A DNA stretch of 64,000 nt from Parcubacteria group bacterium Licking1014_17 (GCA_007376485.1 VMGJ01000004.1:6717-70716); one strand, 5' to 3'; shown: positions 7,101-28,180, numbered from the stretch's first letter. Notes: generated by a model not told the origin, from the sequence alone. Translations and numbers: made by a program.

Positions 7101-7230
7101 CTTGGCCCTCGGCGCATTAGTGACTCTTATGTACATGGGCTACACCAGAACCGGCGCCTTCAAAAAGCGCGACGCCCAAAGCATCGCCAGGAAAAACAGA
7201 AACGACAAGAACAAGTTTAACTTCGCCTAA
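4153..7230 (+). CDS. large modular cell-surface protein: signal/TM, NBR1/CARDB-like beta-sandwich domain, TPTPTPTPTPT linker, unknown domain, 6 tandem 84-aa Ig-like repeats, DUF11-like domain, C-terminal sorting signal NVPTGT + TM + basic tail ending KFNFA
   Basis: 1025 aa; repeat consensus LPTVDIKANGSDGPITI.YNTS..LSW.S.NA.SCVAS.GWSG.K.TSGSESTGNLTSN.TYTITC.N..GSDSDSVTV.V; DUF11-like LP.G..YV.GST..DG block; terminal hydrophobic stretch followed by R/K-rich tail. Confidence 0.85.
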   Translation: MNTIKNSKVWFIAVPLVVLAIFAVPMLITENANAISFDTLNARFVSYENVPTTLCTDEVHLVTMTLQNTGTETWTSAKNIRLGSQNPENNNNWGWTRVDLEEHVVAPSQHLVLTFYIRAPLTAGTYNFQWGMLQENVTWFGDYTANMPIQVKNCGTPTPTPTPTPTSSPTELKCPISNAANRTIFTFPERNSEYIRANRTQEEATFGPDSFNLASGIYKVTLVSFDWHSIYGGQNQSNEQYKVILKNGGATVATSNASADIPESQDWQTTVTNTALALTGAANSITAIHAFYPTSNANSLIPICAAFDLVQQQPVLPTVNIKANGSDGPITIDYNTSTTLSWTSKNATSCVASNGWSGTKATSGSESTGNLTSNHTYTITCSNANGSDTDSVTVKVRQQEVLPTVDIKANGSDGPITVDYNTSANLSWTSSNATSCVASDDWSGSKATSGSESTGNLTSNKTFTITCNNQFGSDTDSVTVKVRQATLPTVDIKANGSNGPITINYNTSATLSWNSTNADSCVASNGWSGNKSTSGSESTGNLTSNKTYTITCSNQYGSDSDSVTVNVSQAVLPTVDIKANSSDGPITINYNTSATLGWTSTNADSCVASNGWSGNKSTSGSESTGNLTSNHVYTITCSNTNGSASDSVTVNVQNQVIPTVNLLANGSHGSITINYNTSANLSWDSTNANYCIASNDWSGSKSTNGSESTGNLTNTRTYTITCYNNNGSASDSVTVYVNNQNNYPTVDLLANGSHGSITIPNNTSTTLSWSSSNANTCYAFNGWTGTKSTYGSESTGNLTYSKTYTISCSNSYGSASDSVTVNVGNPTGQDMVSLQKFGSNITRGQSGDYSTITVYPNDTVRFAIHVTSLTSNTLYNVRISDALPAGFTYVNSSTTLDGILVSDGITNTGINIGTLTPNQERIVRFDARAASGSGLTAGTSYVSNIAYADADSMNRVTTQLSITIVNSTVPNVPTGTTGTVAMALALGALVTLMYMGYTRTGAFKKRDAQSIARKNRNDKNKFNFA
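5095..6620 (+). repeat. six tandem ~252-bp coding repeats (Ig-like domain array)
   Basis: Near-identical nucleotide blocks (e.g. ggctcggatgg(a/g)cc(t/a)atcacg, ggttc(c/g)gaatcaac(c/g)ggtaat) recurring every ~252 bp. Confidence 0.85.
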
Positions 7231-7262
7231 ACGGATATCTTAACGTAGGGCGGATTCAGAAA

Positions 7263-7898
7263 ATGAAATCGAGGGTCAGGTTCGCATTGCTATTTCTCAT
7301 TTCCGTTTTACTTCTCGTTATAGTGCTCAACGGGCGGTACTTTTACGCCAACGCGGTTTACTCGCTGAATCAGCCGGTATCCAATTCGACGCCGGCACCG
7401 GAAATCAGGGTGTTCATACCTCCGGTAAAAGAAGTCCCAAACGTAAAGCCTTTGCCCGACAGCGCTACATTGGTGATACCGAAAATCAATGTTTCCGTTC
7501 CTATTGTCTTCGATATCAACGGCAACAGCGAGAAAAGCATATATGACAATCTAAACCGCGGGGCGGTCCATTACTCAAACACCCCCAAGCCCGGCATGCT
7601 CGGAACAGCGATGATATTCGGCCATAGCTCTGATTACATCTGGAAGAGAAATGCCTATGCGTCCGTTTTCGCCCTTCTGGACAAACTGGAACCGGGAGAC
7701 GTGATGTACGTAAAGTACAGCGACGGCAGAAGATTTGATTTCAGGGTTAATCAAAAGATAATATTCGACCCTAATGCCAACGATTGGCGAATCCAAGAAA
7801 TGGCGTCCGCGAAAACGCCGACACTCATGCTGATAAGCTGTTGGCCGGTCGGCACCGCCAGCAAACGCATAGCCGTCGAAGCAATTGGGATTAAATAA
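7263..7898 (+). CDS. sortase-family transpeptidase (membrane-anchored)
   Basis: N-terminal TM; catalytic His in MIFGHSSDY, Cys in TLMLISCWP (TLxTC-like), Arg in SKRIAVEAI; immediately downstream of a substrate-like protein with sorting signal. Confidence 0.75.
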   Translation: MKSRVRFALLFLISVLLLVIVLNGRYFYANAVYSLNQPVSNSTPAPEIRVFIPPVKEVPNVKPLPDSATLVIPKINVSVPIVFDINGNSEKSIYDNLNRGAVHYSNTPKPGMLGTAMIFGHSSDYIWKRNAYASVFALLDKLEPGDVMYVKYSDGRRFDFRVNQKIIFDPNANDWRIQEMASAKTPTLMLISCWPVGTASKRIAVEAIGIK

Positions 7899-8062: not shown

Positions 8063-11000
8063 ATGGAAATCATACCGGCACCAGTAAAGACACCTTTTTA
8101 TAAAAAACCTGGTTTTTGGTTTCTGACCCTTTTGTTTTTGCTTCTCATCAGGGCGGAAGTTTATGTGTTGAGCGTTGACCGGCAGGTAAACCAAGTTGCC
8201 CTAATAAGCGCCACAGGCGCCGGCTGCACGACTCTTGCCCATCCCATCGCGGTAAAAGTCAGCATGCCGAATTCTCAAGAAAGCGGCTGGTTCATTGGGG
8301 TGGGTGATATCCCCGGCGCTGCCGCCTTTGACGAATCAAACATTAAAGCAGCTATTCAGAATTGGCCAGACGTTGACGGGCTTTTCGTTGGCACGGCCAA
8401 CGGTGATGGCGCGGGCGGTCCTGATGGTACTACCGATGACCGCGCCGGCTGGTTCATTATGGACTGGGGTTGTTTTAAAGATTTAGCCGGAAACGACATC
8501 GCTGAACAAGAATACGGCGTAAACGAAGGAGGAGACATATATGTGGGAACAAGCGCCACAAGCTTAAATGTTAACCCCACGCATCTATCGGGCAATCCCA
8601 ACGCTTCGGGCTGGAAGTATGTAAGCAGCATATCAGAATCCGGTTGTAGCAATTGTCTCAATAGTTTCGATATAGGATTAAATAACGGCGCTGAGTACAA
8701 ATATGTCTATTTTTGGAGCAATGGCAGTCCGGCGGGGTGCGCACCGAGTTGCATCCAACAAGAAATAGATAATGGCACCTGCAAATGCGGGATAGATGAT
8801 AGGTCTTGTGGTTGTCGTGCCAATGGAACCGTGGGGATTTCCGGTTCCAATGTTCAATATATAGAAATACTACAATCACAAAACGGCGGCACGCCTACCC
8901 CGACGCCCAAACCGACGTCTACGCCAACCTCGACACCAACCCAACAGAGTAATAATTCTCAGTGCGTCAGCATTTCCGCTCCCGACACAGTAGAGCAGGG
9001 CAAGACATTTGACGCCACGGTGGTAATGAAAAACACCGGCGCTAAGCCGTGGACCGACCCCGACAATCCGCCCGATCCGGTTGGAGGCAAAGCAACTCCT
9101 CATAAACTCGCTTCCACAAATCCACGTGCCAATATGACGTGGGGGCTGAATGAAGTCGGTCTGCCTGTCTCTAATGTCGACCCGGGAGAAAAGGCGACAT
9201 TTAATTTCAGCGTCACCGCTCCCGCAACCGCCGGCACTTACAGTTTCGCCTGGCAAATGAGAGAAGACTGGATTAAATGGTTTGGGGCGGTTTGCAGCAA
9301 AAACATACAAGTAGTCCAGCCGGCTCTCGTGAATAACGCCGAATGTGTGAGTATCACGGCGCCGGATTCGGTTGAAAAAGGCAAGACATTTGACGCCACG
9401 GTGGTAATGAAAAACACCGGCGCTAAGCCGTGGTCGGATCCCGACACCGACGGTAACAGTTACCCCCATAAACTCGGCTCGGATAATCCGAAAAATAATA
9501 TGAATTGGGGGCTTTCGAGAGTGAGCTTGCCGTTATCGCCCGTGTTGCCCGGCCAAACCGCGACGTTTGATTTTACCGCCACCGCTCCTTCGGTTGCCGG
9601 CATTTACGCGTTCGACTGGAGAATGGTTGAGGAATGGACCGAATGGTTTGGCACGGCGGGCTGTCATAAAAATATCGTTGTTACGGAACCCTACGTCCCT
9701 CCGCCCACCGTTGACATTAAAGCCAATAATTCTGATGGACCCATAACAATTCCCTACAACTCATCCGCCGCGTTATCATGGACATCTAAAAATACCGCGA
9801 GCTGTACCGCCTCGAACGGCTGGAGCGGAATGAAATCAATCAATGGTTCCGAATCAACCGGCGGTTTAATTTCTTCAAAAACTTATACTATTAGCTGTGT
9901 AGGCGCCAACGGAACGGCTTCTGACAGTGTTACTGTCAATGTCGAAAACCGGATATTACCCGTGGTGGATATCAATGCCAACGGCTCGGATGGACCGATT
10001 ACTGTTCCCTATAACTCATCGGTTTCTTTGACCTGGACATCAACCGATGCCGATAGTTGCTCTGCTTCCGGCGATTGGTCCGGCGGCAAAGCCACGGGCG
10101 GGACGGAAGATACCTCGGCGCTAATCAGCAGTAAGACCTATACAATCACTTGTAACAACCAGTACGGTTCGGATTCCGACAGCGTCACTGTCAATGTCGG
10201 CAGTCAAACTTTACCTTCGGTAGACGTAAAAGCCAACGGCTCGGACGGACCAATTACAATTCCTTATAATTCCACAGTGACATTGAGCTGGACTTCCATA
10301 AACGCTACTACTTGCGCCGCTTCCGGCGATTGGTCCGGCGGCAAAGCAATCAATGGTTCGGAAAATACCGGCTTACTGGCATTGAGCCGCATTTATACAA
10401 TCACCTGCGTAAATGGTTACGGTTCCGGTTCGGATAGCGTTGCCATTAATATAAGCAATCCAACCCCAACCCTGAACCCAACTCCAAGCCCGAATAGTTC
10501 CGGCTCGGTTAGCATTCAAAAATTCGGGATGAATATAACCAAGGGAGCGACGGTTGAATCCATAAGTATTACCGCCGATCCGAATGACACAGTCAGATTC
10601 GTCATCAGAGTGCGCTCTCTTTCCAATGGCTACGTCTTCAACGCCAGGGTGGTTGATACCTTGCCCAGCTGGTTAGGTTATGTAAACGGCAGCACTACTA
10701 TCGACGGTATTCTTGTCAGTGATGGCATAACGGGCGCCGGGCTGAATATCGGAACGCTTGCTCTGAATCAGGAAAAAATCATCCGTTTCGACACGGTGGT
10801 ATCGAACGCAAACATCGTCCCGCAGGGAACTTCTTACATTACAAATATCGCCTACATTGACGCCGACAACGTTGCCCGCTCCTCTGTCCAGCTGTCCATT
10901 AATATCGTAAACGGCTCCGTTCCCAACATTCCGACGGGAACTTTCGGCACAACTTTGCTGGCATTGGCGTTGAGCGCCTTACTGACGCTCGTCTACCTCA

Positions 11001-12320: not shown

Positions 12321-13631
12321 TTGTATTTTATGTTGAATCAAGAAGAACTTAAAGTATTACAGGAAATAGCCCACGAGAAAGGTGGTAAGTGTTTGTCTAA
12401 AGAATATAGGGGTTCCAATTTTAAGCTTCTCTGGGAGTGTAGCTTGGGTCACAGATGGCTATCTGCGCCCTGTAAAATAAAGGGAGGTAGATGGTGTCAT
12501 ACGTGCGCTGGAAATATCAAGTTAACTATAGATGAAATGCATAAAATCGCGAAACTTCGTGGTGGTAGATGTTTGTCTACGAAGTATACTAATATTGACA
12601 CAAAATTAGAATGGGAGTGTTCTGACGGTCATCATTGGGTTGCTACGCCAGATACTATTAAGGGAGGTGGATGGTGTCCCTATTGCGGTTTAAGAGGGAT
12701 AAGAGAGAATTTTTGCCGCTTGATATTAGAAAATATATTTAACAAAAATTTCCCTAAAGTAAGTCCAGTATGGCTAAAAACAAAAGACGGCAATAGAATG
12801 GAGCTTGATGGCTACTGTAATGATTTGAAGCTTGCTTTTGAATACCACGGAGAGCAACATTTTAAGAACTTAAAATTTTTTTACAGAAACCGTGGCTCGC
12901 TTCAACAAAGGATAACCTATGACAAGTACAAGAGGAAACTTTGTGAAAAAATACAGATAAAATTAATTGAAATCCCATATCTTATAGAGGACAAGGATAT
13001 ATATCAATACATACTAGCTAAATTGAAGGAGTTAAGAGTTAGAATCCCCAAACATAACGCCAAAAATATTTCAAAAATTAATAAGCAATATCTTAATAGT
13101 AGGTTGAAATATTTTTATCAAATAGCTAGTAAAAGAGGTGGTAAATGTTTATCTAGTGTCTATTTGGGTATCAATCATAAACTTAGATGGCGGTGCTCCG
13201 AGGGACACATATGGAAAGCAACGCCATCAAACGTAAAGAGGTACCACTGGTGCCCATCGTGTGCAGGCTGTAAGAGTTATACAATCAACAAGATTAGGGA
13301 GCTTGCGAAACTTCGTGGTGGTAAGTGTTTATCTACCGAGTATAAAGGCGCACATGGTAAACTTAAGTGGCAGTGCTCCAAAGGACACATATGGGAGACC
13401 ACACCGGACAGTATAAGGAACGGGACGTGGTGCCCCAAGTGCAATGGTAATATTAGTTACACTATTGATGAAATCAGCGAACTTGCGAAATCGTGCGGTG
13501 GCAAGTGCTTATCAAAAAAATATGGGGGTGCACATGGTAAACTTAAGTGGCAATGTTCTGAAGGACATATATGGGAAACTACACCTAATAGTATAAGGAG
13601 AGGGACATGGTGTCTAAAATGTAGAAGTTAA
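12321..13631 (+). CDS. multi-zinc-ribbon repeat protein with central Vsr/DUF559-like PD-(D/E)xK nuclease-fold domain
   Basis: Five ~45-aa repeats (R/K)GG(K/R)CLS..Y....KL.W.C..GH.W...P..I..G.WCP.C, each preceded by a helix (EI.ELAKLRGG). Central block ELDGY...LAFEYHGEQHF...YDKYKRKLCEKIQIKLIEIPY matches the lvIEvDG..H...D..R..L...G signature of DUF559/Vsr-like endonucleases. Confidence 0.6.
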   Translation: MYFMLNQEELKVLQEIAHEKGGKCLSKEYRGSNFKLLWECSLGHRWLSAPCKIKGGRWCHTCAGNIKLTIDEMHKIAKLRGGRCLSTKYTNIDTKLEWECSDGHHWVATPDTIKGGGWCPYCGLRGIRENFCRLILENIFNKNFPKVSPVWLKTKDGNRMELDGYCNDLKLAFEYHGEQHFKNLKFFYRNRGSLQQRITYDKYKRKLCEKIQIKLIEIPYLIEDKDIYQYILAKLKELRVRIPKHNAKNISKINKQYLNSRLKYFYQIASKRGGKCLSSVYLGINHKLRWRCSEGHIWKATPSNVKRYHWCPSCAGCKSYTINKIRELAKLRGGKCLSTEYKGAHGKLKWQCSKGHIWETTPDSIRNGTWCPKCNGNISYTIDEISELAKSCGGKCLSKKYGGAHGKLKWQCSEGHIWETTPNSIRRGTWCLKCRS

Positions 13632-13748
13632 GCCAAAGTATTGTTAATAGTTTTAATCTTTTCAATTTCCGTTCCAACCGTCTCCCAGGCGGACTGAATG
13701 GAGTGAAGGACGGTCGAAGCCCCGCAACTGTTTACGGGACGTAAGGAA

Positions 13749-14042
13749 TCAATTTTTTAGTGTCTCAAGATTTATCTGATTACTATATTCGATAAATCTA
13801 TTGGTATTATATCTAATTTCAATCAATTGAACCTGATAAAAACTATTATCATATCTTTGATCCTTATGTCCACCAGCGTATATTATTTTAATCATATTTT
13901 CTTCTTTTATATAAACAATTCTTGCACCCCGACGTTTGCACACATTTTCCTCTGGAAGATTTATCCCAGCGTGAAAGGTTTTATTTTGTAACTCCTTATT
14001 TTTAATGTGATGTACTGGGGTTTCTCCTTGGCATTTTACCAT
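13749..14042 (-). CDS. small RelE/ParE-like putative toxin (tentative)
   Basis: 97 aa; RRGARIVYIKEENMIKIIYAGGHKDQRY resembles the G.YRIIY...V.IL.IGHRKD.Y core of RelE/ParE; 107 nt downstream of the Panacea-domain gene. Confidence 0.35.
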   Translation of the reverse strand: MVKCQGETPVHHIKNKELQNKTFHAGINLPEENVCKRRGARIVYIKEENMIKIIYAGGHKDQRYDNSFYQVQLIEIRYNTNRFIEYSNQINLETLKN

Positions 14043-14149
14043 CTATACTTAAATAACGGATAGCTCTAGACATCTCTTTACCTAGGGTTTTATACCATCT
14101 GTCGTGGCATTTTTTTATGTCATCGAGAACATCAGAATGAATCATTACT

Positions 14150-14677
14150 TTAATCATCATTCAGATCCATCTCTCCAAAGCTATTCCGGTAGAATGCAAG
14201 ATAATATGGGATTTCCTCACCATACCCAACCATCTTGTAAGGAGGCTCAGACTGGGCTATTTTTTCTAGATCGCCCGCGGTTTCGAGTTTAAACTTTTCG
14301 ACTAGTTGTTTTAATATCCTTAATTCATTCTCATCAAAAATTTTAATATTAGGTTCGGAATTGGGTATGATTTTTTCCAAACCATAACTATTTGCCTCTT
14401 GGATATCAATAATGCCTTCATTTTTTAAGTCATTTAATGCTTTGTAGAATAATTTTGGTTCTGGCATCGGCCCATAGTCTTTTTTTGTATAAGGCAACCC
14501 CGTCAAAGACTTTCCTCGCGTAAGTTCAAACAATGTAAAATCAATAAAATATAAGAGTTTTGCCAGCTTCTTTTTTCCAACATCAAACCCCCCGTTTTTG
14601 GCTATAAACAAAACTGCATTCTTAAACTTTTCCTTATTATATTGGCTCTTTTTTGATAGTAACATTAGTAAAATCAT
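14150..14677 (-). CDS. Panacea-domain (DUF4065, SocA/GepA-like) putative antitoxin
   Basis: 175 aa; NAVLFIAKNGGFDVGKKKLAKLLYFIDFTLFELTRGKSLTGLPYTKKDYGPMPE matches the Panacea domain KL.KLLYF.D core. Confidence 0.6.
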   Translation of the reverse strand: MILLMLLSKKSQYNKEKFKNAVLFIAKNGGFDVGKKKLAKLLYFIDFTLFELTRGKSLTGLPYTKKDYGPMPEPKLFYKALNDLKNEGIIDIQEANSYGLEKIIPNSEPNIKIFDENELRILKQLVEKFKLETAGDLEKIAQSEPPYKMVGYGEEIPYYLAFYRNSFGEMDLNDD

Positions 14678-20690: not shown

Positions 20691-20852
20691 GTTTTATTGA
20701 TTATATCCTACCCGGCCGCGATGCGCGAATAGCGCTCTCGTAAAATTAAATCCGCCATTCCCAGCGGACATTTTTATCATTGCAACCGTATTGGTTATTT
20801 TAGCATTCCTAATAACGGCGTCAACCCTCGTCGCAAGCTACAATTACCCGCA

Positions 20853-20877
20853 GGTCAATTCCACCATTTGACCCGCT
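20853..20877 (+). repeat. left copy of a perfect 25-bp inverted repeat GGTCAATTCCACCATTTGACCCGCT (itself an imperfect palindrome GGTCAAtt-CCACC-atTTGACC)
   Basis: Exact reverse complement present at 25840-25864. Confidence 0.9.
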
Positions 20878-20915
20878 CGCCCCGCTGAAGCTCCGGTGAA
20901 GCAGGCAAAGCTCGT

Positions 20916-21416
20916 TTAGGAAGTAGGCGTTTGATAGCGGGCGTGTTCGGGAGGACCGACTTGCTTAAGCCGGTTTTCTTTGACTAATTGTTTTAGATAG
21001 CGGGTTGCCGTGGAATCGGAAATTCTCAAAGCGACTGCCGCTTCACGTGCCGAAATGACCTGCTTTTTTTGCGCCAACTTTATAATTTTTTCCAGTTTCG
21101 CCCGCTTTCTGGCAAATAAAACTTCATTTGCTTTGCGCAATAACACCGTAAAAAATCCTTCGTCTTTTTGCGCCGGCTGAACGGGCGCATTTTGAGTCGG
21201 CGTTGGTGGCGGTACAACTACCGGCTTTGTCGGCGCGGAATTTGATTCCGCGTTTGTTTCTGGGCTTGGCTGGGATTCTGTCGGCGCCGTTTCTATCGTC
21301 TGCTCTTGCGCCGCTCCCGACTCTGGTGCCACGGCTTCAGGCGTTTCCGTTGAAACCGAAGTTTCCATCGGCACTGATTGTTGAGTATCAGAAGGCGTTT
21401 GTGTTTCGTCGGACAT
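20916..21416 (-). CDS. DNA-binding protein: long disordered S/T/P/Q/E-rich N-terminus + C-terminal winged-HTH
   Basis: 166 aa; C-terminal ISAREAAVALRISDSTATRYLKQLVKENRLKQVG is a typical HTH recognition region. Confidence 0.5.
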   Translation of the reverse strand: MSDETQTPSDTQQSVPMETSVSTETPEAVAPESGAAQEQTIETAPTESQPSPETNAESNSAPTKPVVVPPPTPTQNAPVQPAQKDEGFFTVLLRKANEVLFARKRAKLEKIIKLAQKKQVISAREAAVALRISDSTATRYLKQLVKENRLKQVGPPEHARYQTPTS

Positions 21417-21522
21417 AATTATATTTTATCCTTACTAATAAAACTACCTCCTTTTCCGGGCAAGCAGAGATTCTTCTTTTTCTTCAGTTGAAACTCTGGC
21501 GAGTATTGCAGCTTTCATAAAC

Positions 21523-22374
21523 TTAATTCAACTTTTTAGTATCGTTTTTAGGTGGTAAAAAGTTCTGCGTGCTGACCACCTTTTTCCCCGTTTGTTGCTC
21601 TAGTGCTCTTCTTGCATCGCCAGAAATTCGTCCTCCCTTTTGCCCCGCTTTTGCATTTTCGTTATATCCTCTTGCCTGTTCGGTTTTTGCTATTTGCGTA
21701 GTTGAGAGTTCGGCTAACGCGGTAAAAATCAATTCTGCCTCAGTCATATTGTCTCTTAGGTTTTGACCTTTTAGTTCTTTAATTCTTTTGTGTGTCTTTG
21801 TTGTTAAACCACTCCACTCGTAATGAATAATGTCGGTGAGTTTGGCGTATTCAATGCCTTTTTGCACGCCACTCTCTTGCCAATAATCAGTCAATTTGTT
21901 TCTTGTTTCTTGGCCTCTCATTCTTTGCTCAATCCATTTCTCTGACATACCTACTTGCTTCCAATGGCTTCTCGCTCTGTCCACTGCCAGTTCTGGGTTT
22001 ATGGTTTCCTGCAGTCTCTCATAGCCAACTCTAGCCAGCCATTGCTTAAAGGGTTCGGCTTTGGGAGAGGGTATGCTTTGAATTACCCTTAAAACCGTCT
22101 CTGTGTCTGCCACATCGGTTTTATAGTTTTTGCCGTCTTTTGCTCGCATTTTCAGTTGTCCCAAAGATTGGGACAACTCACTACCCTCCTGCTTTAGCTT
22201 AGTTTTTAGGGCATTCCAATACTTTCTAGGTCTTGGGCTTCCACTTAATACTTCCACGACATCAACAATCGCAAAATACCATTGCTCTTTTTCCTCGTCC
22301 CAAGCCCTGCGGACAGGGACATTTTCAAAATTAACGATTAGTTTTTCTGATTGCATTATATGTTTTTTCTCCAT
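21523..22374 (-). CDS. Bro-N domain / DinD-like (DNA-damage-inducible protein D family) protein
   Basis: 283 aa; N-terminal FENVPVRRAWDEEKEQWYFAIVDVVEVL (Bro-N); C-terminal KELKGQNLRDNMTEAELIFTALAELSTTQIAK parallels E. coli DinD KGLKKNQKILDHMGSTELAANLFRATQTEEKL. Confidence 0.55.
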   Translation of the reverse strand: MEKKHIMQSEKLIVNFENVPVRRAWDEEKEQWYFAIVDVVEVLSGSPRPRKYWNALKTKLKQEGSELSQSLGQLKMRAKDGKNYKTDVADTETVLRVIQSIPSPKAEPFKQWLARVGYERLQETINPELAVDRARSHWKQVGMSEKWIEQRMRGQETRNKLTDYWQESGVQKGIEYAKLTDIIHYEWSGLTTKTHKRIKELKGQNLRDNMTEAELIFTALAELSTTQIAKTEQARGYNENAKAGQKGGRISGDARRALEQQTGKKVVSTQNFLPPKNDTKKLN

Positions 22375-22451
22375 AGATTTTAATTTATCTACTTAAAATT
22401 ATTTTCAAATTTTTGAGAATTTAGAAATATACATATTGTGAAAAGTCATAA

Positions 22452-22769
22452 TTAAAGCAGAATATTTTTACATTTTGGACATTGCCCCGTACCTACTAAT
22501 AGTCCAATCATAGTACCACATTTAGAACACGAGAGGTCACTATACGTTGAATCTGATATTTTTATAGCAGTGGTCAGACCATCTGCTGATTGCACTTTTA
22601 TATTCGATAATTTATTGACTATCACGTTTGCCGCTTGACCGCCGCTTTGATTAATAGTTGTTACGGAATGACTGATTCCAATCTCCTTTTTGTTAAAATT
22701 CAAAAATCTCAATCTCAGTGAGCCAAATAATTTTTTAAAAATACCGGACATATAATTCAGAAATTCCAT
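22452..22769 (-). CDS. small hypothetical protein with C-terminal zinc ribbon (CSKCG...CPKC); 13-nt overlap with upstream RM gene
   Basis: ORF translation. Confidence 0.4.
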   Translation of the reverse strand: MEFLNYMSGIFKKLFGSLRLRFLNFNKKEIGISHSVTTINQSGGQAANVIVNKLSNIKVQSADGLTTAIKISDSTYSDLSCSKCGTMIGLLVGTGQCPKCKNILL

Positions 22770-25700
22770 ATTTTATCAATTTCTCTCATTATTCTATCGG
22801 TTTCGACCAAGGCGACAATCATTTGTTGATAGTGTCTTAAATCTTCGTCAATTAATTCACGGCATTTGCGGTCCTTGAGCCATTTTTGCGCCGGCTGATA
22901 GCCGCCTATCCAAAAGTTCCAGGCGATTTCAGGCACGTTATCAAAATATTGAGTGGCATTTATGTACGCCTTACCGTCTTTGTATTCAACTTTCTCAATT
23001 TTATTTGTCCCGGCTATATTATAATCCGTGATGAATTGATTGACTTTTGGCGACTCCAGCAGATGTAGGCCGCGAAGCTCGCACCCCAAAGCGACAAGCG
23101 CCTGAAATTGTTTCTTGTCCTTCGGATATGGCACGCGAGGAAAATCAATTTTGAGAAACTCTTTGTATTTCTCACGATACTTTGGCGAATGCAAAACTGC
23201 ATAGATATAATCAAAAATATCCTCTGGTGTAACTTTGCCGGCAATCTTCTCAATTTCAGCAACAATCTCTGTTTTCAAATTAAGTATCCTTACGTCGTTG
23301 GTAAATGTGTAGAACGGAAATATATAAGTCTGATCGCTTGCCGCGTGAATATCAGAAATAGATCGAGTTACAAATACACGATCAAATAATTGATTAGCAG
23401 GAATGGTTCGACTAGATAGTAAAGATAGATTCTCTTTTTTCACTATGTTTATGTTTGTCTTTTCTCTCGGATAAGCGATAAAACCTTTTGAGTTGCCGGT
23501 ATATATGGTATAACGCACATCAAAAGGCCTGTATTGAATTTGCTCAACGCTATAACCCTTTCGTAAGTCATCCTGTGCCCACTTGATTTTCCAATCTCGT
23601 CCATCTTCAGGTAACTGATATTTATCTTGCACCTCTTTTTCTGTAAGTTTTTTGAAATCATCCGCTACTTTTTCTATGCTGTCCAACGAGAATTGAATAA
23701 CCGTATCATCCCGCTTCGTTTGAATACCAGAATTATAGTGTAAAAATAGCTCATCAATTTTGAATCCCTCGTCATATTCGCTCTTTGCTCTGAAATTCTT
23801 AGGCACAAAGAAATAGTAAGGTTCTGAATAATCCAGTTTTTGCCACTTAATTTTTTGTATATCGGATGCATTAAGTGTCTCGAATTTTTCTTCGCGCTTG
23901 CCGAATAATTCTGAGTGATAAACAGTGCCGAGCTTTTTTTTATCCGCGTTTTTGCGGACAAAAATATTTATTGATACCCCCTGCTGGATACTAAAAACAT
24001 TTTCATCGTTTGCCTCCTTTTTTCTGGCATTGCCGTGCAAGTCCAAAATATAAACAGCGTCAAATGTTTCAAGTAGGTGTTTTCTCATCTGCCGATGGGT
24101 AATACCATCTATGAAAGAATTATTAGTAATCATTGCAACGATACCGGTCTTGTTTTTCTCAATAAAATGCTCGGCGAAACGAATGAACTTAATGTAGTCG
24201 TCGTCAAGATTTATCTTGCGCTCGCCTAGGCCTTTTTTATAGTCCTTAATAAGATTTAAAATCCACTCACCTTTATTTGAAGAACTAATGCTATAAGGTG
24301 GATTACCGAGAACTACCATAATAGGCCTATCATTTTTTATAACAGCCGCTTCTTTTGCTTCTTCGGCTATGCTTTCCGCAAAACCAAATGAGAGTAAATC
24401 CGGCTGGACACTGCTTTCTTCAAGAGAATTCGTAAGGAAAACATTCAACCGCGCGTTATTGAAATATTTAAAACCAGTTTCTTTTAGCATCATGCCGATT
24501 TTTAAATGAGCGATTACGTATGGCGCCATCATCAGCTCAAAGCCATATATTCTCGGCAAAAGGTCGTGAAGGACATATGCCGGCCATCGGCCTTGTTGGT
24601 TTGAAAATTTATCGTGGATATTTTGTACCGTTTCGCTTAAAAATGTGCCCGTGCCCACGGCCGGATCAAGAATTTGCACTTTATGCACGGCTCCCGCTTT
24701 TGCTGTATCGGCTAATCCTTGCGGGAGGTTAAATTCTTTTTTAAGCAGTTCATCAACTGACCGAACGATGAATCTGACTACCAGAAGTGGCGTGTAATAT
24801 GCTCCCATTTTTTTGCGAAGCTCGGCGTCATATTCTTTCAAAAAGTCTTCGTAAAAATGAATGACCGGGTCAAGCCCTTCGTGTATCTTTCCAAATAAAT
24901 CTTTCTGCTTATAATACTGCTCCATAAGCGCGCGCACGTCCGTCAGTGAGAAGACCTCGCACAATTCATTAACAATATAGCCGAGCCGTTTATCAAAATC
25001 CGGGCCGATAATGTGGTCAAAAAAGTGCCGAAGCAATGGATTGGAAGCGGGCACAAGTTCGCGGGCTTTTTGTCGAGTGAAAGGTTCCGATGATTCGTCA
25101 TAATAGCGCGCGACAAAAAGCCCATACACAAGCGTCTGGGCATACATATCAGCGAAGGTATCAGGAGTTAAGTCGTGTACAAGTAATTTCTTTACAATTT
25201 CGTACACGCGCTTTATCTCTCCATAATCATCTATGTTTGAAGAGAAAATGTGCCTTACATTATCGCGTATGCGCCGGGCTTTGCCGCCCATAATTTTGGC
25301 TAAAAGAGCTCCGTTTTTAATCGGTTCCGGTTTGCCCGAAAGAAAATTTATCAGGGCATTAGCAAGAGTATCGTAATTCTCGGAATTACCAACAATACGA
25401 CCATTCTGAATTGATGCTATAACGATAGGTTCTTCGTAACGCTGACCGTTTTGATAAAAACGAAATTCTATATAGTTAGTAAGAATAAAGTTAGTATAAC
25501 CCGAGATATATCGTTGCAACTGTTCGCTCCGTTCCATCTTGTTAATATCGACATCAACGTCCTTTGTTTCCGCATAACCGAGCTGAATTTCCCCACGTGT
25601 AAAAACGAAATCGGGCGCACCAAATTCGGAGTGTTTTGGTTCGTTCAGTGATCGCGCCTTGACGCCTATATCCGCTATAAGTCCTTCGAGTGCCGAACGA

Positions 25701-25792
25701 TATGTATGTTCCCGTGCTTGGCCGGTGGCATATTTTTCCGCAAGAGCGGCGACATATTTCGCAACGGATTCAGATTGATTCATTGAGCGCAA
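22757..25792 (-). CDS. Type IIG restriction-modification enzyme (MmeI-like fused PD-ExK endonuclease / gamma-class N6-adenine methyltransferase / TRD)
   Basis: 1011 aa; N-terminal APDFVFTRGEIQLGYAETKD (D..E.K nuclease motif), MTase motif I ILDPAVGTGTFL and motif IV VVLGNPPYSISS, ~400-aa C-terminal specificity region. Confidence 0.75.
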   Translation of the reverse strand: MRSMNQSESVAKYVAALAEKYATGQAREHTYRSALEGLIADIGVKARSLNEPKHSEFGAPDFVFTRGEIQLGYAETKDVDVDINKMERSEQLQRYISGYTNFILTNYIEFRFYQNGQRYEEPIVIASIQNGRIVGNSENYDTLANALINFLSGKPEPIKNGALLAKIMGGKARRIRDNVRHIFSSNIDDYGEIKRVYEIVKKLLVHDLTPDTFADMYAQTLVYGLFVARYYDESSEPFTRQKARELVPASNPLLRHFFDHIIGPDFDKRLGYIVNELCEVFSLTDVRALMEQYYKQKDLFGKIHEGLDPVIHFYEDFLKEYDAELRKKMGAYYTPLLVVRFIVRSVDELLKKEFNLPQGLADTAKAGAVHKVQILDPAVGTGTFLSETVQNIHDKFSNQQGRWPAYVLHDLLPRIYGFELMMAPYVIAHLKIGMMLKETGFKYFNNARLNVFLTNSLEESSVQPDLLSFGFAESIAEEAKEAAVIKNDRPIMVVLGNPPYSISSSNKGEWILNLIKDYKKGLGERKINLDDDYIKFIRFAEHFIEKNKTGIVAMITNNSFIDGITHRQMRKHLLETFDAVYILDLHGNARKKEANDENVFSIQQGVSINIFVRKNADKKKLGTVYHSELFGKREEKFETLNASDIQKIKWQKLDYSEPYYFFVPKNFRAKSEYDEGFKIDELFLHYNSGIQTKRDDTVIQFSLDSIEKVADDFKKLTEKEVQDKYQLPEDGRDWKIKWAQDDLRKGYSVEQIQYRPFDVRYTIYTGNSKGFIAYPREKTNINIVKKENLSLLSSRTIPANQLFDRVFVTRSISDIHAASDQTYIFPFYTFTNDVRILNLKTEIVAEIEKIAGKVTPEDIFDYIYAVLHSPKYREKYKEFLKIDFPRVPYPKDKKQFQALVALGCELRGLHLLESPKVNQFITDYNIAGTNKIEKVEYKDGKAYINATQYFDNVPEIAWNFWIGGYQPAQKWLKDRKCRELIDEDLRHYQQMIVALVETDRIMREIDKIWNF

Positions 25793-25839
25793 TTATACCC
25801 CGAAATCGCACAGAAAGCCAGTGCCAAAATGTACCGACC

Positions 25840-25864
25840 AGCGGGTCAAATGGTGGAATTGACC
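25840..25864 (-). repeat. right copy of the 25-bp inverted repeat, 48 nt upstream of the RM start codon
   Basis: agcgggtcaaatggtggaattgacc = reverse complement of 20853-20877. Confidence 0.9.
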
Positions 25865-25879
25865 CACAACTACTTTTGC

Positions 25880-26175
25880 AACCCCGCCCAAGTTTCGCAG
25901 GGCAAAATTCAGAAGGGCGAGCCGGCTCTTTTGAGGGCTGTTGAAGTCGCCGGCAGCACGGTTTTGTCAACGACCGAGAGGACATTCTCACATTCTTGAG
26001 AATGTGAGAATGTCCTTGAATGTCTTGACAAATGCCAGCGACTTCACCAGATGGATTTTCTTCGCTGGAGAAAATCCAGTCCCGAAAAAGAGTTGGCAAG
26101 CCCGCATGCCGGATTTTTAAGTCGGGTATAGCAAACCCGCCCAAATTTTGCAGAGCAAAACTTCGGCGGGCAAAA
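25880..26175. repeat. hairpin-dense noncoding tract: perfect 16-bp-stem hairpin (25980-26015) nested in a longer palindrome (25964-26031), second hairpin (26053-26077), and two divergent copies of a ~45-nt hairpin motif (25880-25925; 26132-26175)
   Basis: ggacattctcacattc-ttga-gaatgtgagaatgtcc; ttgtcaa...ttgacaa; ggattttc...gaaaatcc; accccgcccaagtttcgcagggcaaaa vs aacccgcccaaattttgcagagcaaaa. Confidence 0.8.
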
Positions 26176-26305
26176 CTATCAACAATTTATCCTCTTTATT
26201 GTTGACCTGCGCGCTCTTGGTTGCTACATCTGCTTAATACTAACGTTGTTGAAAACCAAAACGCGGATTCCTGTTAGAATGTATTAGGTAATAAAATAAA
26301 TATTC

Positions 26306-28015
26306 ATGCCTGACGGCAAACAAGCGACAAATCAATCTCCGATTACGCCGGTCCAGACCGGCAAGGAGCAGGAATTGGAGGCAAAATTGGGTGAAATTCA
26401 GGCTAAACACCTTGAAGAAGAGGCAATATTGAGGTCGCAGAAGTCCGGCGTGCCGTATATAGACCTGAAAACTTTCCCGGTTGATACCGGCACCGTGGCA
26501 ATGATTGACGAAGAAGCGGCGCGCAGAGCCAAAGTCGCCGCCGTCGCCAGCAAAGCCGGAGTTATGAGCATCGTTGTAAACGACCCCGACAACCCGGAAG
26601 CGAAATCAATCATTAAGTCATTTGAAGACAGAGGCCTTGTCTGCAAGGTTTTTGTGGTTTCTGAAATCGGGCTCGCGAAAGCCTGGGCCAGATACAAATA
26701 CGCCAAAGAAAGAAAAGCGGAGGTGAGCGGAATGGTAAAAATTGACGAGTCGGCCATTGACGCCCTCGAACAACAAATCAATAGTTTAAAAGACCTCAAA
26801 GACAGGATTGTATCCATATCAATCACGCAACTGCTTGATATGCTCATCGCCGGCGCGTTAAAAATAAACGCCTCCGACATCCATTTTGAAGCGAAAGAAA
26901 CAAACATCCGTTTGCGGTACCGCCTGGACGGTATGCTTACGGACGTGGTTGATTTTTCGCCAACCGGTTATCCGAATTTGCTCAGCAGAATAAAACTTGT
27001 TTCGGGCATGAAGCTTAATATCCACGACAAGCCACAGGACGGACGCTTCACCATTAGGCGCAAGGATTTGGATATTGAAGTGCGTGTTTCGATTCTCCCC
27101 GGACCTAACGGCGAGAATATCGTGATGCGCATACTCGACCCCCGGACTATCCAGCAAAATCTGGAAGATATGGGCATGCGCCCGGACACATTGAGAACAA
27201 TGAACGAAATGCTCAAAAAAACGACCGGCTCAATACTCACCACGGGGCCAACTGGTTCGGGCAAGACCACGACTTTATACGCGTTCATCAGAAAAATAAA
27301 CGCTCCCGATTTGAAAATAATCACCATTGAAGACCCGGTTGAATATCACGTAAAAGGAGTTCAGCAAACCCAGGTGGACCCGGAAGCCGGCTACACATTC
27401 GCTAATGGTCTCCGTGCCATCGTCAGACAGGACCCAGATGTTATATTGGTCGGCGAAATCAGGGACAAAGAAACCGCCGATATCGCCATGCAGGCGGCGC
27501 TTACTGGCCATCTGGTTTTTTCGACGATCCACACGAACAGCGCTGCCGGCACCGTTCCTCGCCTAATCGACTTAGGCGTGAGACCCCAAACCATAGGACC
27601 AGCAGTAAACGCTATGATGGCCCAGCGGCTTTTAAGGCGCCTTTGCTCGAAATGTAAGAAAAAACAGCTTATTAAAAAAGAGGATTACGATTTATTGAAA
27701 AAATATCTGACCGATGTCCCCATGGAAATCATAAAAGAGATTGATATCCCCAAAATAAGCGAAAATATGGAGATATATTACCCGGCTGGCTGCGCCGAAT
27801 GCAATGACACCGGCTATAAAGGCAGAGTGGGAGTTTACGAAATAATATTAATGGACAAGGATTTGGATAAATTAATTGCCCAGATGCCGTCAATTTCGCA
27901 GGTCGAAGAATTAGCGGTTAAAAAAGGAATGATATCTTTATTAAAAGACGGTTTCTTGAGGGTTTTGTCCGGAATAACATCCGTAGAGGAAGTATTAAGA
28001 ATTATAGGCGAATAA
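26306..28015 (+). CDS. type II/IV secretion-family assembly ATPase (PilB/GspE-like)
   Basis: 569 aa; GspE N-terminal domain, Walker A GPTGSGKTTTL, Asp and His boxes, C-terminal tetracysteine CSKC...CAEC. Confidence 0.85.
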   Translation: MPDGKQATNQSPITPVQTGKEQELEAKLGEIQAKHLEEEAILRSQKSGVPYIDLKTFPVDTGTVAMIDEEAARRAKVAAVASKAGVMSIVVNDPDNPEAKSIIKSFEDRGLVCKVFVVSEIGLAKAWARYKYAKERKAEVSGMVKIDESAIDALEQQINSLKDLKDRIVSISITQLLDMLIAGALKINASDIHFEAKETNIRLRYRLDGMLTDVVDFSPTGYPNLLSRIKLVSGMKLNIHDKPQDGRFTIRRKDLDIEVRVSILPGPNGENIVMRILDPRTIQQNLEDMGMRPDTLRTMNEMLKKTTGSILTTGPTGSGKTTTLYAFIRKINAPDLKIITIEDPVEYHVKGVQQTQVDPEAGYTFANGLRAIVRQDPDVILVGEIRDKETADIAMQAALTGHLVFSTIHTNSAAGTVPRLIDLGVRPQTIGPAVNAMMAQRLLRRLCSKCKKKQLIKKEDYDLLKKYLTDVPMEIIKEIDIPKISENMEIYYPAGCAECNDTGYKGRVGVYEIILMDKDLDKLIAQMPSISQVEELAVKKGMISLLKDGFLRVLSGITSVEEVLRIIGE

Positions 28016-28180
28016 AACCACCATAACCTGTAGGCAATAGCCGAGACGTTGGAGTCTGGGGTTAGAGTAATCCCGAGGTATACCCCAGTTAAAAACCGAG
28101 ATACCCATCTGCGAAAATACTCCTTTGAGGCAGTCCCGCGAAGGAAGACCTCAATTGCCTACAGATTGCGGTGGTTTTTT
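28016..28180 (+). ncRNA. candidate ~165-nt structured RNA (long closing stem ctgtaggcaat/attgcctacag plus internal ctgggg/ccccag stem, ends in T-run); could be a 6S-like RNA or an elaborate terminator
   Basis: Seen directly between pilB-like stop and ruvB start; 11-bp perfect long-range complementarity 28028-28038 vs 28154-28164, then ggtggtttttt. Confidence 0.35.

Follow-up and report, generated by a model that had tools for sequence, protein, structure and literature searches.

A 5012-bp island encoding a single-chain restriction-modification (RM) enzyme is inserted between pilB and nusA in the 64-kb stretch of DNA analysed here (the window), which comes from an uncultivated member of the Parcubacteria, and it is bracketed by a perfect pair of inverted 25-bp repeats. 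Each repeat is itself a hairpin-forming palindrome, and palindromes of the same family follow the gene of a winged-helix (wHTH) protein wherever members of that protein family were examined, including the one encoded in the island. The reading we prefer, with confidence somewhat short of even, is that the 25-mers are the cognate target of the island's own wHTH protein and serve as control or boundary sites.

Gene content of the island and its insertion between pilB and nusA

The features of the island and its borders are given by position in the window, each with its basis.

20797..20824, minus strand: nusA promoter-like site, TTGACG-16-TAAAAT with a TG extension (consensus scan, 10/12)
20853..20877, plus strand: left copy, 25-nt palindromic site (exact match; R1 score 46 bits)
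20853..25864: whole inserted island, 5012 bp (empty sites in relatives; composition profile)
20916..21416, minus strand: wHTH protein, 166 aa, proposed palindrome binder (Pfam HTH_24; predicted model)
21523..22374, minus strand: Bro-N domain protein, PADLOC candidate defence gene PDC-S13 (Pfam, PADLOC, PHROG)
22452..22769, minus strand: Zn-ribbon ORF, 105 aa, with a C-terminal CxxC...CxxC zinc ribbon (sequence)
22757..25783, minus strand: Type IIG/IIL RM enzyme, single chain, 1008 aa (Pfam, PADLOC, PDB, motif)
25792..25797, minus strand: TATAAT box, predicted RM promoter (read from sequence)
25840..25864, minus strand: right copy, 25-nt palindromic site (exact match; R1 covariance model 49 bits)

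The gene content proposed in the initial annotation (RM enzyme, Zn-ribbon ORF, Bro-N protein and helix-turn-helix protein) was confirmed by matches in Pfam, PADLOC, PHROG and PDB. Type IIG/IIL enzymes are single chains with an N-terminal PD-ExK nuclease, a gamma-class N6-adenine methyltransferase and a C-terminal target-recognition domain, and they have no helicase motor. The 1008-aa island enzyme matches the Pfam families N6_Mtase, Eco57I, MmeI_Mtase and Type_ISP_C, the PADLOC profile REase_MTase_IIG (1.8e-275) and PDB entry 7lo5 (9e-50); a PD...ExK motif (D58, E71, K73) is readable in its translation, and Pfam finds no helicase domain in it. Judged by its sequence, it is a single-chain Type IIG/IIL enzyme of the MmeI/DrdV-like kind. 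The start of the Zn-ribbon ORF overlaps the RM stop by 13 nt, and its only family match is a weak Yippee-like one. The Bro-N protein, whose true start is probably the Met at 22356, matches Pfam Bro-N (7.9e-11), PHROG 15286 and, at full length, PDC-S13 (1.2e-122; residues 7-280 on positions 1-274 of the 286-position profile). We know of no experimental demonstration so far of a defence function for the PDC-S13 family. The single minus-strand operon suggested there is at most putative; promoter-like boxes are found in the gaps of 77 and 106 nt.

The RM start codon was also revised. The TTG first chosen, 47 nt from the right copy, overlaps the TATAAT box, and the ATG at 25783 is the likelier start. 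The right copy does lie upstream of the RM gene, at 56 nt from this ATG rather than at the 48 nt originally given. The TATAAT box precedes the ATG by 8 nt and lacks a good −35 element at 16-18 nt, and the consensus scan omits it because the −35 is missing. If it is the RM promoter, the mRNA is predicted to be near-leaderless, and the centre of the right copy falls ~70 nt upstream of the predicted transcription start. At the opposite border, the nusA promoter-like site is outside the island, directly after the left copy; equivalent nusA promoters, with a conserved leader hairpin, are present at the comparison loci L028, L030 and L032.

Insertion between nusA and pilB was borne out by empty sites in three relatives with the same gene order (L028/L029 and L032), in which pilB directly adjoins nusA. 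At the empty site of L032 the sequence is GTTGTG-AAAAC-GCGGGTAAT. The window has GTTGTG next to one 25-mer and TGCGGGTAAT next to the other, so the ends of the repeats coincide with those of the insert; this junction is placed only to within a few nt because the relatives share ~67% NusA identity. The GC fraction is 0.35-0.39 in the island centre versus ~0.47 in the flanks. In L030/L031 this position is taken by a different insert of three genes, and we propose that the pilB-nusA spacer is an insertion hot spot. As originally described, the island contains no transposase or integrase and shows no obvious target-site duplication: the gene tables list no recombinase domain in the island or its neighbours, and the outer flanks, which end in ...CCCGCA and resume at CACAAC..., share only CA/TG (2 bp, a 1 in 16 chance). 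Nowhere else was the four-gene unit found. No relative was seen to carry it without the repeats, and RM homologs stand alone in other contexts.

The repeat pair and the palindrome family

The 25-mer GGTCAATTCCACCATTTGACCCGCT lies at 20853-20877 on the plus strand, with its exact reverse complement at 25840-25864. A search allowing up to 3 mismatches returned only these two copies in the 64-kb window and nothing in 100 shuffles, upholding the claim of a perfect inverted pair around the island. Within ~84 kb of the source contig the 25-mer is not a frequent repeat, with no third copy in the 10-kb flanks on either side, and the pair is the sole perfect long-range inverted repeat of the window. 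Identity between the copies spans exactly 25 nt and ends abruptly on both sides. The palindrome reported within each copy was likewise verified: the hairpin is GGTCAA-TTCCACCAT-TTGACC, followed by CGCT in the minus-strand reading of the right copy, and its stem has 6-7 Watson-Crick pairs on the plus strand and 9 pairs, one of them G.U, on the minus strand. Both copies keep a 10-nt inner arm (TTGACCCGCT) and an outer arm of only 6-7 nt. The left copy does lie past the stop of the last gene; the distance from the wHTH stop codon is corrected to 38 nt, and the copy is 28 nt upstream of the nusA −35 box.

By sequence comparison, the repeat is a member of a family of hairpin-forming palindromes and is not specific to a transposon. 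The family consensus is GGsTCAA-loop-TTGAsCC with a loop of 2-11 nt, and the half-site spacing varies widely among sites (loops of 0-2, 5, 9 and 11 nt). Most of the additional copies came from an exact 19-mer search, so the apparent conservation of the loop is partly an ascertainment effect. The outer stem pairs covary freely (covariation score 0.40 versus 0.17 in shuffles), 8/12 pairs are changed on both sides, and a G:C to C:G swap is seen at arm position 5 in L155, L156 and L020b. Dyad symmetry is kept at each site despite differences from its partner or relatives. At L020, for example, an inverted pair surrounds a single orphan ORF, and the two copies (L020a and L020b) differ at ~6/23 positions with each stem perfect. 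Because the spacing varies and the outer stem is complementary without being conserved, the folded hairpin appears to matter, and not a duplex operator alone.

A palindrome lies 0-40 nt after the stop codon in all five wHTH-family genes examined (window, L017, L155, L156 and L004), and two of these loci (L155 and L156) were reached through the protein alone. The L017 protein is 35% identical to that of the island, and the core of its site is identical. The L155 site is GGCTCA-tttccaccatt-TGAGCC (R1 score 40 bits), and the L156 site, CGCGGCTCAAA-cccccagca-TTTGAGCCGCG, directly follows the wHTH stop. The L004 protein is a distant family member (6.8e-18) with the palindrome TGGCTCAAC-gg-GTTGAGTTA. 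For all these sites the chance level of such arm pairs is about 1.5 per 64 kb of shuffled window sequence. Orientation relative to the wHTH gene is one way in the window and L017 and the other way in L155 and L156, and the opposite orientations differ only in the loop, the stem sequence being the same. No such palindrome was found at RM homologs without a nearby wHTH gene (L005-L008), and no copy lies upstream of the wHTH gene itself in L017 and L156.

The layout of the island has a counterpart in a second genome. L004 carries, in order, a palindrome, an RM homolog (67% identity), other genes, a wHTH gene and a palindrome. The upstream palindrome lies 24 nt before the ATG of the RM homolog, and the second, after the wHTH gene, is 6.5 kb downstream. 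These two sites are alike at ~26/30 positions, yet they are unlike the site in the window.

The winged-helix protein and rival readings of the repeats

The island wHTH protein consists of a disordered Pro/Thr/Glu-rich N-terminus, a long helix and a C-terminal winged helix. Its family comprises 560 clusters at E<=1e-3, in uncultivated bacteria, and the recognition-helix motif S-D-x-T-A-x-R-Y-L is nearly invariant among them. The folds nearest to the predicted model (pLDDT 86.6) are dimeric operator-binding repressors of the MarR, ArsR/SmtB and BlaI types, with matches to MarR and ArsR/SmtB at E ~3e-4 to 5e-3 and TM 0.55-0.65. Among sequence profiles, HTH_24 alone scores above its cut-off, with MarR_2 below its own. 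The modelled protein resembles MarR and ArsR/SmtB repressors, without being a demonstrated member of either group, and is probably dimeric.

According to the reading we prefer, a defence island comprising the Type IIG RM enzyme, the Zn-ribbon ORF, PDC-S13 and the wHTH protein would have been acquired horizontally, landing at pilB-nusA. The dimeric wHTH protein, with its MarR/ArsR-like fold, would bind the hairpin-forming palindrome as its cognate nucleic-acid target. The left copy would be the family-typical site 3' of the wHTH gene and would separate the island from the nusA promoter, while the right copy would be a putative wHTH site ahead of the predicted RM transcription start. Bound at both sites, the protein may control the island, insulate it, or do both. 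The repeat pair, the insertion, the gene families, the linkage of wHTH genes to the palindrome and the stem covariation are shown directly by the analysis. From these we infer that the wHTH protein binds the site, whether as duplex, cruciform or RNA, and that a regulatory or insulating outcome follows.

The initial annotation had offered three options for the repeats: ends of an element mobilised in trans, sites of the island's own helix-turn-helix protein, or recombination sites. The second gains the most support of the three because all five wHTH genes are followed by a palindrome. Sequence evidence pointing the same way includes the recurrence of the palindrome-RM-wHTH-palindrome layout in L004, the symmetry kept at each site, the tolerance of either orientation and the lack of palindromes at RM homologs without a wHTH gene; the fold neighbours of the model, being dimeric operator-binding repressors, are also consistent with it, as is the nearly invariant recognition-helix motif. 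Sites lie near putative promoters, namely the nusA −35 box, the TATAAT box without a −35, and, at L003, a promoter-like site (11/12 positions) 9 nt downstream of the copy; only 2 of the ~6 promoters proposed downstream of sites pass the consensus scan. Some features fit less well. The symmetric truncation at the insert ends resembles transposon ends and would not be predicted for an operator pair. The variable spacing and the complementary but unconserved outer stem point to a folded hairpin and not to a duplex operator alone. A conserved site 3' of a regulator gene would be unusual for an autoregulatory operator, and L017 and L156 lack a copy ahead of the wHTH gene.

A serious rival, which we nevertheless consider rather doubtful, is that the 25-mers are terminal inverted repeats of a non-autonomous cassette, a transposase encoded elsewhere having moved the 5-kb unit into the pilB-nusA spacer. 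The repeat is perfect (25/25), inverted and unique of its kind in the window. Its two copies coincide, to within a few nt, with the ends of an insert that splits the L032 sequence and that is lacking from the empty sites of three relatives, and in each copy a would-be 29-bp palindrome is cut short at the same point. The lower GC inside the island, the different insert at the same spot in L030/L031 and the inverted pair around the L020 ORF are in keeping with mobility. There is precedent in RM units with inverted repeats of 26/26 and 60/65 and no transposase (PMC2853133), and the wHTH gene adjoins one end of the island as a transposase gene adjoins its right repeat. However, the target-site duplication would amount to the 2-bp CA/TG, the island has no transposase, and neither another repeat copy nor a cognate transposase occurs in ~84 kb of the contig. 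Single, fully palindromic copies are found at L003, L017, L026, L155 and L156, that of L156 with no partner within 10 kb on either side. The divergence of the L020 copies around perfect stems is unexpected for transposase-bound ends, the L014 pair is direct rather than inverted, and no second insertion of the four-gene unit was found. For the option of an element bounded by inverted repeats, the position of the repeats at the insert ends speaks in favour; the single copies, the dyad symmetry of each site and the lack of a transposase partner in those ~84 kb speak against.

It is also conceivable, though distinctly unlikely, that the palindromes act only as folded hairpins, of RNA or of single-stranded DNA, where transcription units begin or end, with no involvement of the wHTH protein and with the gene linkage reflecting inherited context. 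Roles at that same low likelihood would include 3'-end stabilisers, non-canonical terminators, insulators and base pairing of a transcript's 5' end with its 3' end. The outer stem pairs covary without sequence conservation, the longer stem, with a G.U pair, forms on the transcribed strand of the adjacent gene in the window, L020a and L026, and every copy is intergenic, many of them right after stop codons or tRNA genes (L014b, L004c and L004U). Against this, no copy has a U-tract of its own or matches an Rfam family, and canonical U-tract terminators adjoin copies in L155, L004D, L017 and L020, making a second terminator unneeded; L020b lies downstream of such a terminator. The GGsTCAA inner stem keeps its sequence in genomes whose wHTH proteins share only 35-60% identity, which is not the behaviour of generic hairpins. 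In addition, if the TATAAT box is the RM promoter, the right copy would be outside the RM transcript, leaving no 5'-3' pairing.

Less likely still to account for the pair, and highly improbable in our view, is a role as crossover sites at which a trans-acting site-specific recombinase inverts the 5-kb segment. Identical inverted sites with dyad arms and an asymmetric centre do resemble hix/gix-type or att-type sites, and the contig carries two genes for large serine recombinases a short way beyond the window. These genes, however, are ~40 kb and ~28 kb away from the island and belong to separate Xre-linked modules. Only one orientation was assembled, predicted promoters inside the segment mean that flipping would switch nothing obvious, and an invertible switch does not account for the single copies elsewhere or for the direct pair in L014.

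Comparison with known systems

Inverted-repeat-flanked RM units and RM controller proteins are known; the wHTH-palindrome module appears to be undescribed. Furuta, Abe and Kobayashi (2010; PMC2853133) described transposon-like RM units with flanking inverted repeats and no transposase, among them a Neisseria gonorrhoeae Type IIG unit with 26/26-bp repeats. Like these units, the island places a Type IIG RM enzyme and accessory ORFs between short perfect inverted repeats, is inserted where a relative has an empty site, and holds no mobility gene. The published units have 8-bp target duplications, whereas none was seen at the island, and the island repeats differ in being hairpins, members of a family linked to a wHTH gene and also found as single copies. 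Mobile insertion cassettes, among them MIC231 and the qnrD cassettes, similarly carry non-transposase cargo between IS-like terminal inverted repeats and are presumed to be mobilised in trans (PMC3913671), but their repeats are shared with a known IS of the same host and they produce target duplications, neither of which was found for the island.

In RM systems with C proteins and C-boxes (PMC3874152), as in the island, the cluster encodes a small DNA-binding protein and has a palindrome ahead of the promoter of the restriction gene. Such systems are expected to exert feedback control once they have entered a new host, and the same role is envisaged here. C proteins are Xre-type (HTH_3) regulators encoded at the operon start, with the C-box at their own promoter. 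The island regulator, in contrast, is an HTH_24 winged helix with a MarR/ArsR-like predicted fold encoded last, so it is not an Xre-type C protein; its conserved site follows the gene on the 3' side, and the enzyme has R and M fused in one polypeptide. BrxR/CapW regulators (PMC9122601) are likewise a wHTH family co-localised with varied defence genes, and BrxR binds inverted repeats. BrxR has a WYL ligand-sensing domain and is encoded upstream of the system it regulates, while the island family lacks WYL, begins with a disordered stretch and cannot be related to BrxR by sequence.

The palindromes also recall REP/BIME and attC elements. These too are short hairpins between genes, often on the 3' side, in which the inner part is conserved and the stem varies with compensating changes. 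Dedicated proteins recognise both in the form of folded DNA; REPs are present in many copies together with a RAYT (Y1 transposase) gene, and attC sites lie in one orientation beside an integrase and have an R'' / R' core (RYYYAAC / GTTRRRY). With 2 copies in ~84 kb and no Y1_Tnp match in the gene tables, the repeats are not REP/BIME elements. Nor are they integron attC sites, as there is no integrase, orientations are mixed (inverted in the window and L020, direct in L014) and the arms read GGsTCAA / TTGAsCC. A Hin/Gin or shufflon-type segment would have an adjacent recombinase, and the island and its neighbours have none.

Taken more broadly, the wHTH protein and its hairpin palindrome might constitute a boundary or mobility module, unrecognised so far, for cassettes of accessory genes in the CPR and in other uncultivated bacteria, a proposal that we regard as unlikely. 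If it were true, the bound protein would protect or define the ends of DNA inserted without a transposase or integrase, or would alternatively act as a sequence-specific roadblock insulator. The variable cargo delimited by the palindromes, often with tRNA genes adjacent, would then be an RM island at two loci (the window and L004) and orphan ORFs at two others (L020 and L014).

The repeats and the inserted island

The sequence GGTCAATTCCACCATTTGACCCGCT occupies positions 20853-20877 and recurs as a perfect reverse complement at 25840-25864, which confirms the perfect 25-bp inverted repeats, each internally palindromic, described in the initial annotation. With up to three mismatches allowed, these are the only two matches in 64 kb (0 in 100 shuffles), and no other perfect long-range inverted repeat occurs in the window. 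Identity between the copies stops abruptly at both sides, giving a repeat of exactly 25 nt. Chance and assembly artefact can be rejected as sources of the pair, since the shuffles were empty and 25 nt is far under assembler k-mer size. The possibility, raised at the outset, that the 25-mer is a frequent genome-wide repeat is likewise rejected within the 84 kb available (window plus 10-kb flanks), where no third copy occurs. Each copy can form a hairpin, GGTCAA-TTCCACCAT-TTGACC, with a 9-bp stem including one G.U on the minus strand, the coding strand of the enclosed genes, and a 6-7 bp stem on the plus strand.

Features of the island, from right to left
25840-25864, right repeat
minus strand, Type IIG/IIL restriction-modification (RM) enzyme, single chain, 1008 aa (Pfam N6_Mtase, Eco57I, MmeI_Mtase, Type_ISP_C)
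minus strand, Zn-ribbon ORF, 105 aa, its start overlapping the RM stop
minus strand, Bro-N protein, full-length match to PADLOC candidate defence gene PDC-S13 (1.2e-122)
minus strand, winged-helix (wHTH) protein, 166 aa, disordered N-terminus and C-terminal winged helix
20853-20877, left repeat

The content of the island stands as first annotated, with four genes between the repeats, all on the minus strand, but their description as a single operon is not established, since the last three are spaced 77 and 106 nt apart, with promoter-like boxes in the gaps between them. The RM enzyme matches PADLOC REase_MTase_IIG (1.8e-275) and PDB 7lo5 (9e-50) and has a PD...ExK motif; no helicase domain was found in it with Pfam. 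Its start is likely the ATG at 25783; a TATAAT box, without a -35 element, lies 8 nt before this codon. A start at this position would place the right repeat 56 nt upstream. Promoter calls are consensus matches, of which only two pass the scan; promoters read by eye downstream of the palindromes on L156 and L020, contigs from other genomes, failed it and were set aside.

The nearest NusA homologs share no more than 64-69% identity, and near relatives are therefore lacking. Nevertheless, L028/L029 and L032, three related contigs, keep the gene order PBP, tyrS, ruvC, yebC, ruvB, pilB <> nusA, tig, with pilB adjoining nusA across a spacer of 371 or 271 bp, and these empty sites bear out the earlier proposal that the island is inserted between nusA and pilB. 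On L030/L031, a fourth lineage, the same spacer holds a different three-gene insert (5157-7761: SNase, NYN ribonuclease and bPH_2), which makes it an insertion hot spot. Relatives with ~67% NusA identity were used to compare the junctions. The L032 spacer reads ...GTTGTG-AAAAC-GCGGGTAAT...TTGACA; in the window, GTTGTG adjoins the right repeat and TGCGGGTAAT adjoins the left repeat. This split of an L032-like sequence implies that the inserted DNA ends within a few bases of the 25-mers. The conserved nusA promoter and leader hairpin are on the outer side of the left repeat, GC content is 0.35-0.39 inside the island versus ~0.47 outside, and no target duplication was found at the island ends beyond a CA dinucleotide. 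A degenerate copy candidate on L030 (5735-5755, 4 mismatches) was unsupported by a covariance model and was dropped.

The palindrome in other genomes and its association with a winged-helix gene

When one genome per species was scanned for an exact 21-mer, one further copy turned up, in a Staskawiczbacteria MAG (L003), with a 12-bp stem and the same 9-nt loop as in the window. An exact 19-mer scan of metagenomes returned 16 loci, most of which look like chance matches, lying inside long ORFs or showing no extra pairing. In four of ~14 independent matches (L014, L017, L020 and L026), the fixed 5-bp stem is extended by 4-6 pairs of differing sequence, which has a chance of ~2% per single match. 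Most of the extra copies came from exact-match patterns, inflating the apparent conservation of the loop. An eight-copy alignment shows both-side changes in 8/12 stem pairs and a covariation of 0.40 versus 0.17 in shuffles; the copies were partly picked for their stems, so the covariation is supportive rather than independent. The covariance model built from this alignment found no further copy in the window, the 10-kb flanks, the empty sites or the RM-homolog loci. Two diverged inverted copies, each with a perfect stem, surround a single orphan ORF on L020, and two direct-orientation copies surround another orphan ORF on L014, beside the 3' end of a tRNA-Leu gene.

A second locus with the layout of the window, on contig L004, was picked for its RM homolog (67% identity) and carries three related palindromes (CGAAT..CTCAAC-GG-GTTGAG..ATTCG) within 19 kb.

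Palindromes on L004
2812-2839
7948-7977
14490-14520

The RM start codon is preceded, at a distance of 24 nt, by one of the palindromes; a matching one comes after a wHTH gene that lies 6.5 kb downstream. These two sites agree with each other at ~26/30 positions and differ from the site in the window, and the cargo between them differs from that of the window except for the RM and wHTH genes. Two of the copies, the third and the upstream one, follow tRNA-Ala genes at a short distance (29 and 72 nt), and the remaining copy is the one after the wHTH gene. A conserved four-gene mobile unit was not found: the five loci with RM homologs (66-67% identity) have different neighbours, and the homologs on L005-L008 are accompanied by neither a wHTH gene nor a palindrome.

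Comparison of these contexts indicates that the palindrome travels with the winged-helix gene and not with the RM gene. L017, a 1-kb contig found via the motif, encodes a protein 35% identical to the island wHTH with the same architecture, and its hairpin begins 5 nt past the stop codon. The wHTH C-terminus by itself gave no match in a protein word search, and an exhaustive HMMER search (E<=1e-3) placed the C-terminal 86 aa in a family that comprises 560 clusters. Almost all of its members measure 150-220 aa and carry the domain at the extreme C-terminus, and the recognition helix S-D-x-T-A-x-R-Y-L is nearly invariant. Two further contigs, L155 and L156, were reached through the protein alone and are thus unbiased as to the motif. 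L155 has GGCTCA-tttccaccatt-TGAGCC ~28 nt past the wHTH stop, and L156 has CGCGGCTCAAA-cccccagca-TTTGAGCCGCG directly past it. The wHTH gene of L004, a distant member (6.8e-18), is followed by TGGCTCAAC-gg-GTTGAGTTA. The palindrome therefore accompanies the wHTH gene in 5/5 readable contexts (window, L017, L155, L156 and L004). Its arms change compensatingly (G:C to C:G at arm position 5), and the loop varies in length and sequence. It is found in both orientations relative to the gene, which is irrelevant for a stem that reads alike on both strands.

Candidate functions of the repeats

The feature is a real and non-trivial one, a defence island in a hot spot with one copy of a protein-linked palindrome at each end. 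The best-supported reading makes the 25-mers the cognate target of the wHTH protein encoded in the island itself. In an AlphaFold model of the C-terminal 86 aa (pLDDT 86.6), a helix of 33 residues leads into a classic winged helix. Among solved folds, the MarR, ArsR/SmtB and BlaI repressors are nearest, in weak matches (E ~3e-4, TM ~0.6), and PDB sequence searches gave nothing significant. These repressors act as dimers on palindromic operators. The left copy would be the family-typical site 3' of the wHTH gene, and 28 nt separate it from the nusA -35 box downstream; for the right copy, the distance to the predicted RM transcription start, also downstream, is ~70 nt. Once bound, the wHTH protein could feed back on RM expression, in the manner of the C proteins of RM systems (PMC3874152), and could protect nusA against read-through; a further precedent is provided by the BrxR-type regulators of defence islands (PMC9122601). 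Three properties fit a simple duplex operator poorly: arm spacing ranges from 0 to 11 nt, the non-conserved outer stem is still complementary, and the position 3' of the regulator gene is conserved. Recognition may therefore involve a cruciform, a single-stranded hairpin or RNA.

The main rival to this reading, less probable and offered in the initial annotation, is that the island is a cassette with the 25-mers as transposon ends (terminal inverted repeats). Identity over exactly 25 nt, stopping where the insert stops, is as in transposon ends, and in both copies a would-be 29-bp palindrome has its inner 10-nt arm intact but is missing the outer 4 nt. RM units with short perfect inverted repeats and no transposase have been published, including a Type IIG unit with 26/26-bp repeats (PMC2853133), and the island shares both properties with them. 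However, the absence of a transposase and of a clear target duplication, remarked on from the start, was borne out, and the 84 kb hold no third copy. Moreover, single, fully palindromic copies occur elsewhere, that of L156 partnerless within 10 kb, and the two copies on L020 have diverged mutually, each keeping its own symmetry. That the protein-site module itself defines the cassette ends, a hybrid of these readings, is unlikely. Should the sites serve as boundaries or in mobility, and not as operators, they would represent a new way to package accessory genes.

A role purely at the RNA level is weakened by the right copy being probably upstream of the RM transcription start and by canonical terminators that adjoin several copies, one copy lying downstream of such a terminator. 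The palindromes are not themselves intrinsic terminators, lacking a U-tract. Inversion of the 5-kb segment is very improbable, given predicted promoters inside it and, as the only recombinases, two large serine recombinases ~28 and 40 kb away. Integron attC sites, REP/RAYT, dif/Xer and IS200/IS605 ends misfit in orientation, copy number, core motifs or partner genes; ARAGORN and Rfam (gathering thresholds or E<=5) were empty at the sites, excluding a tRNA fragment or known RNA family; a phage origin found no support in viral contigs, where two scans by pattern and one by protein matched no better than by chance; and the hairpin arm TTGACC has no -10 box at 16-18 nt in either window copy, against its being a -35 box.

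At this locus, a two-system island is cleanly inserted in a conserved hot spot beside an essential gene, and a regulator and its site form a candidate pair seen again in unrelated genomes. RM units flanked by inverted repeats and RM controller proteins are known kinds of system, whereas the module of wHTH gene and palindrome appears to be new. CPR bacteria largely lack CRISPR and are thought to depend on restriction systems (PMC4742961).

Other features of the loci

The nusA promoter and start are separated by a leader hairpin, ATGTCCGC...GCGGAC with a T-rich run after it (window 20750-20769; L028 7960-7985), which is conserved in all four lineages (window, L028, L032 and L030) and resembles a leader attenuator. 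Between the right repeat and pilB (25865-26305), ~300 nt absent from L032 may be a separate small insertion or MITE-like element; this spacer has two 41-nt direct repeats (25878-25918 and 26131-26171, 78% identical), each a long hairpin, enclosing a perfect 18+18-nt palindrome (25979-26016). The pilB-ruvB gap holds a 25-nt inverted repeat (28014-28038 and 28154-28178, 88% complementary), one arm of which contains CCACCAT, the hairpin-loop core, possibly by coincidence. A few kb from the island, at ~9.4-14.4 kb of the window (L001 16026-18361), a SocA_Panacea gene (toxin-antitoxin-associated domain) and a DUF4379/CapR-like gene adjoin sortase and giant surface protein genes.

The large serine recombinases (Resolvase, Recombinase, Zn_ribbon_recom) lie in the flanks on the same contig, at L033 7732-9378 (~0.6-2.3 kb past the window end, 64000) and L034 1-614 (~7.2-7.8 kb before the window start). 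Both genes adjoin a small Xre-type HTH gene, and L033 also has two LAGLIDADG endonuclease genes. On L156, a free-standing 143-aa RNA polymerase alpha C-terminal domain protein (9501-9932) is encoded directly upstream of the wHTH homolog, and a D12-class adenine methyltransferase (13469-14353) 3 kb downstream. On L014 (918-981 and 1482-1504), two tandem TCCACCAAATG units and an inverted loop copy, AAATGGTGGAATTT, lie beside the hairpin, and the diverged second hairpin is 20 nt past the 3' end of the tRNA-Leu gene, an arrangement that resembles iterons or the scars of repeated insertion.
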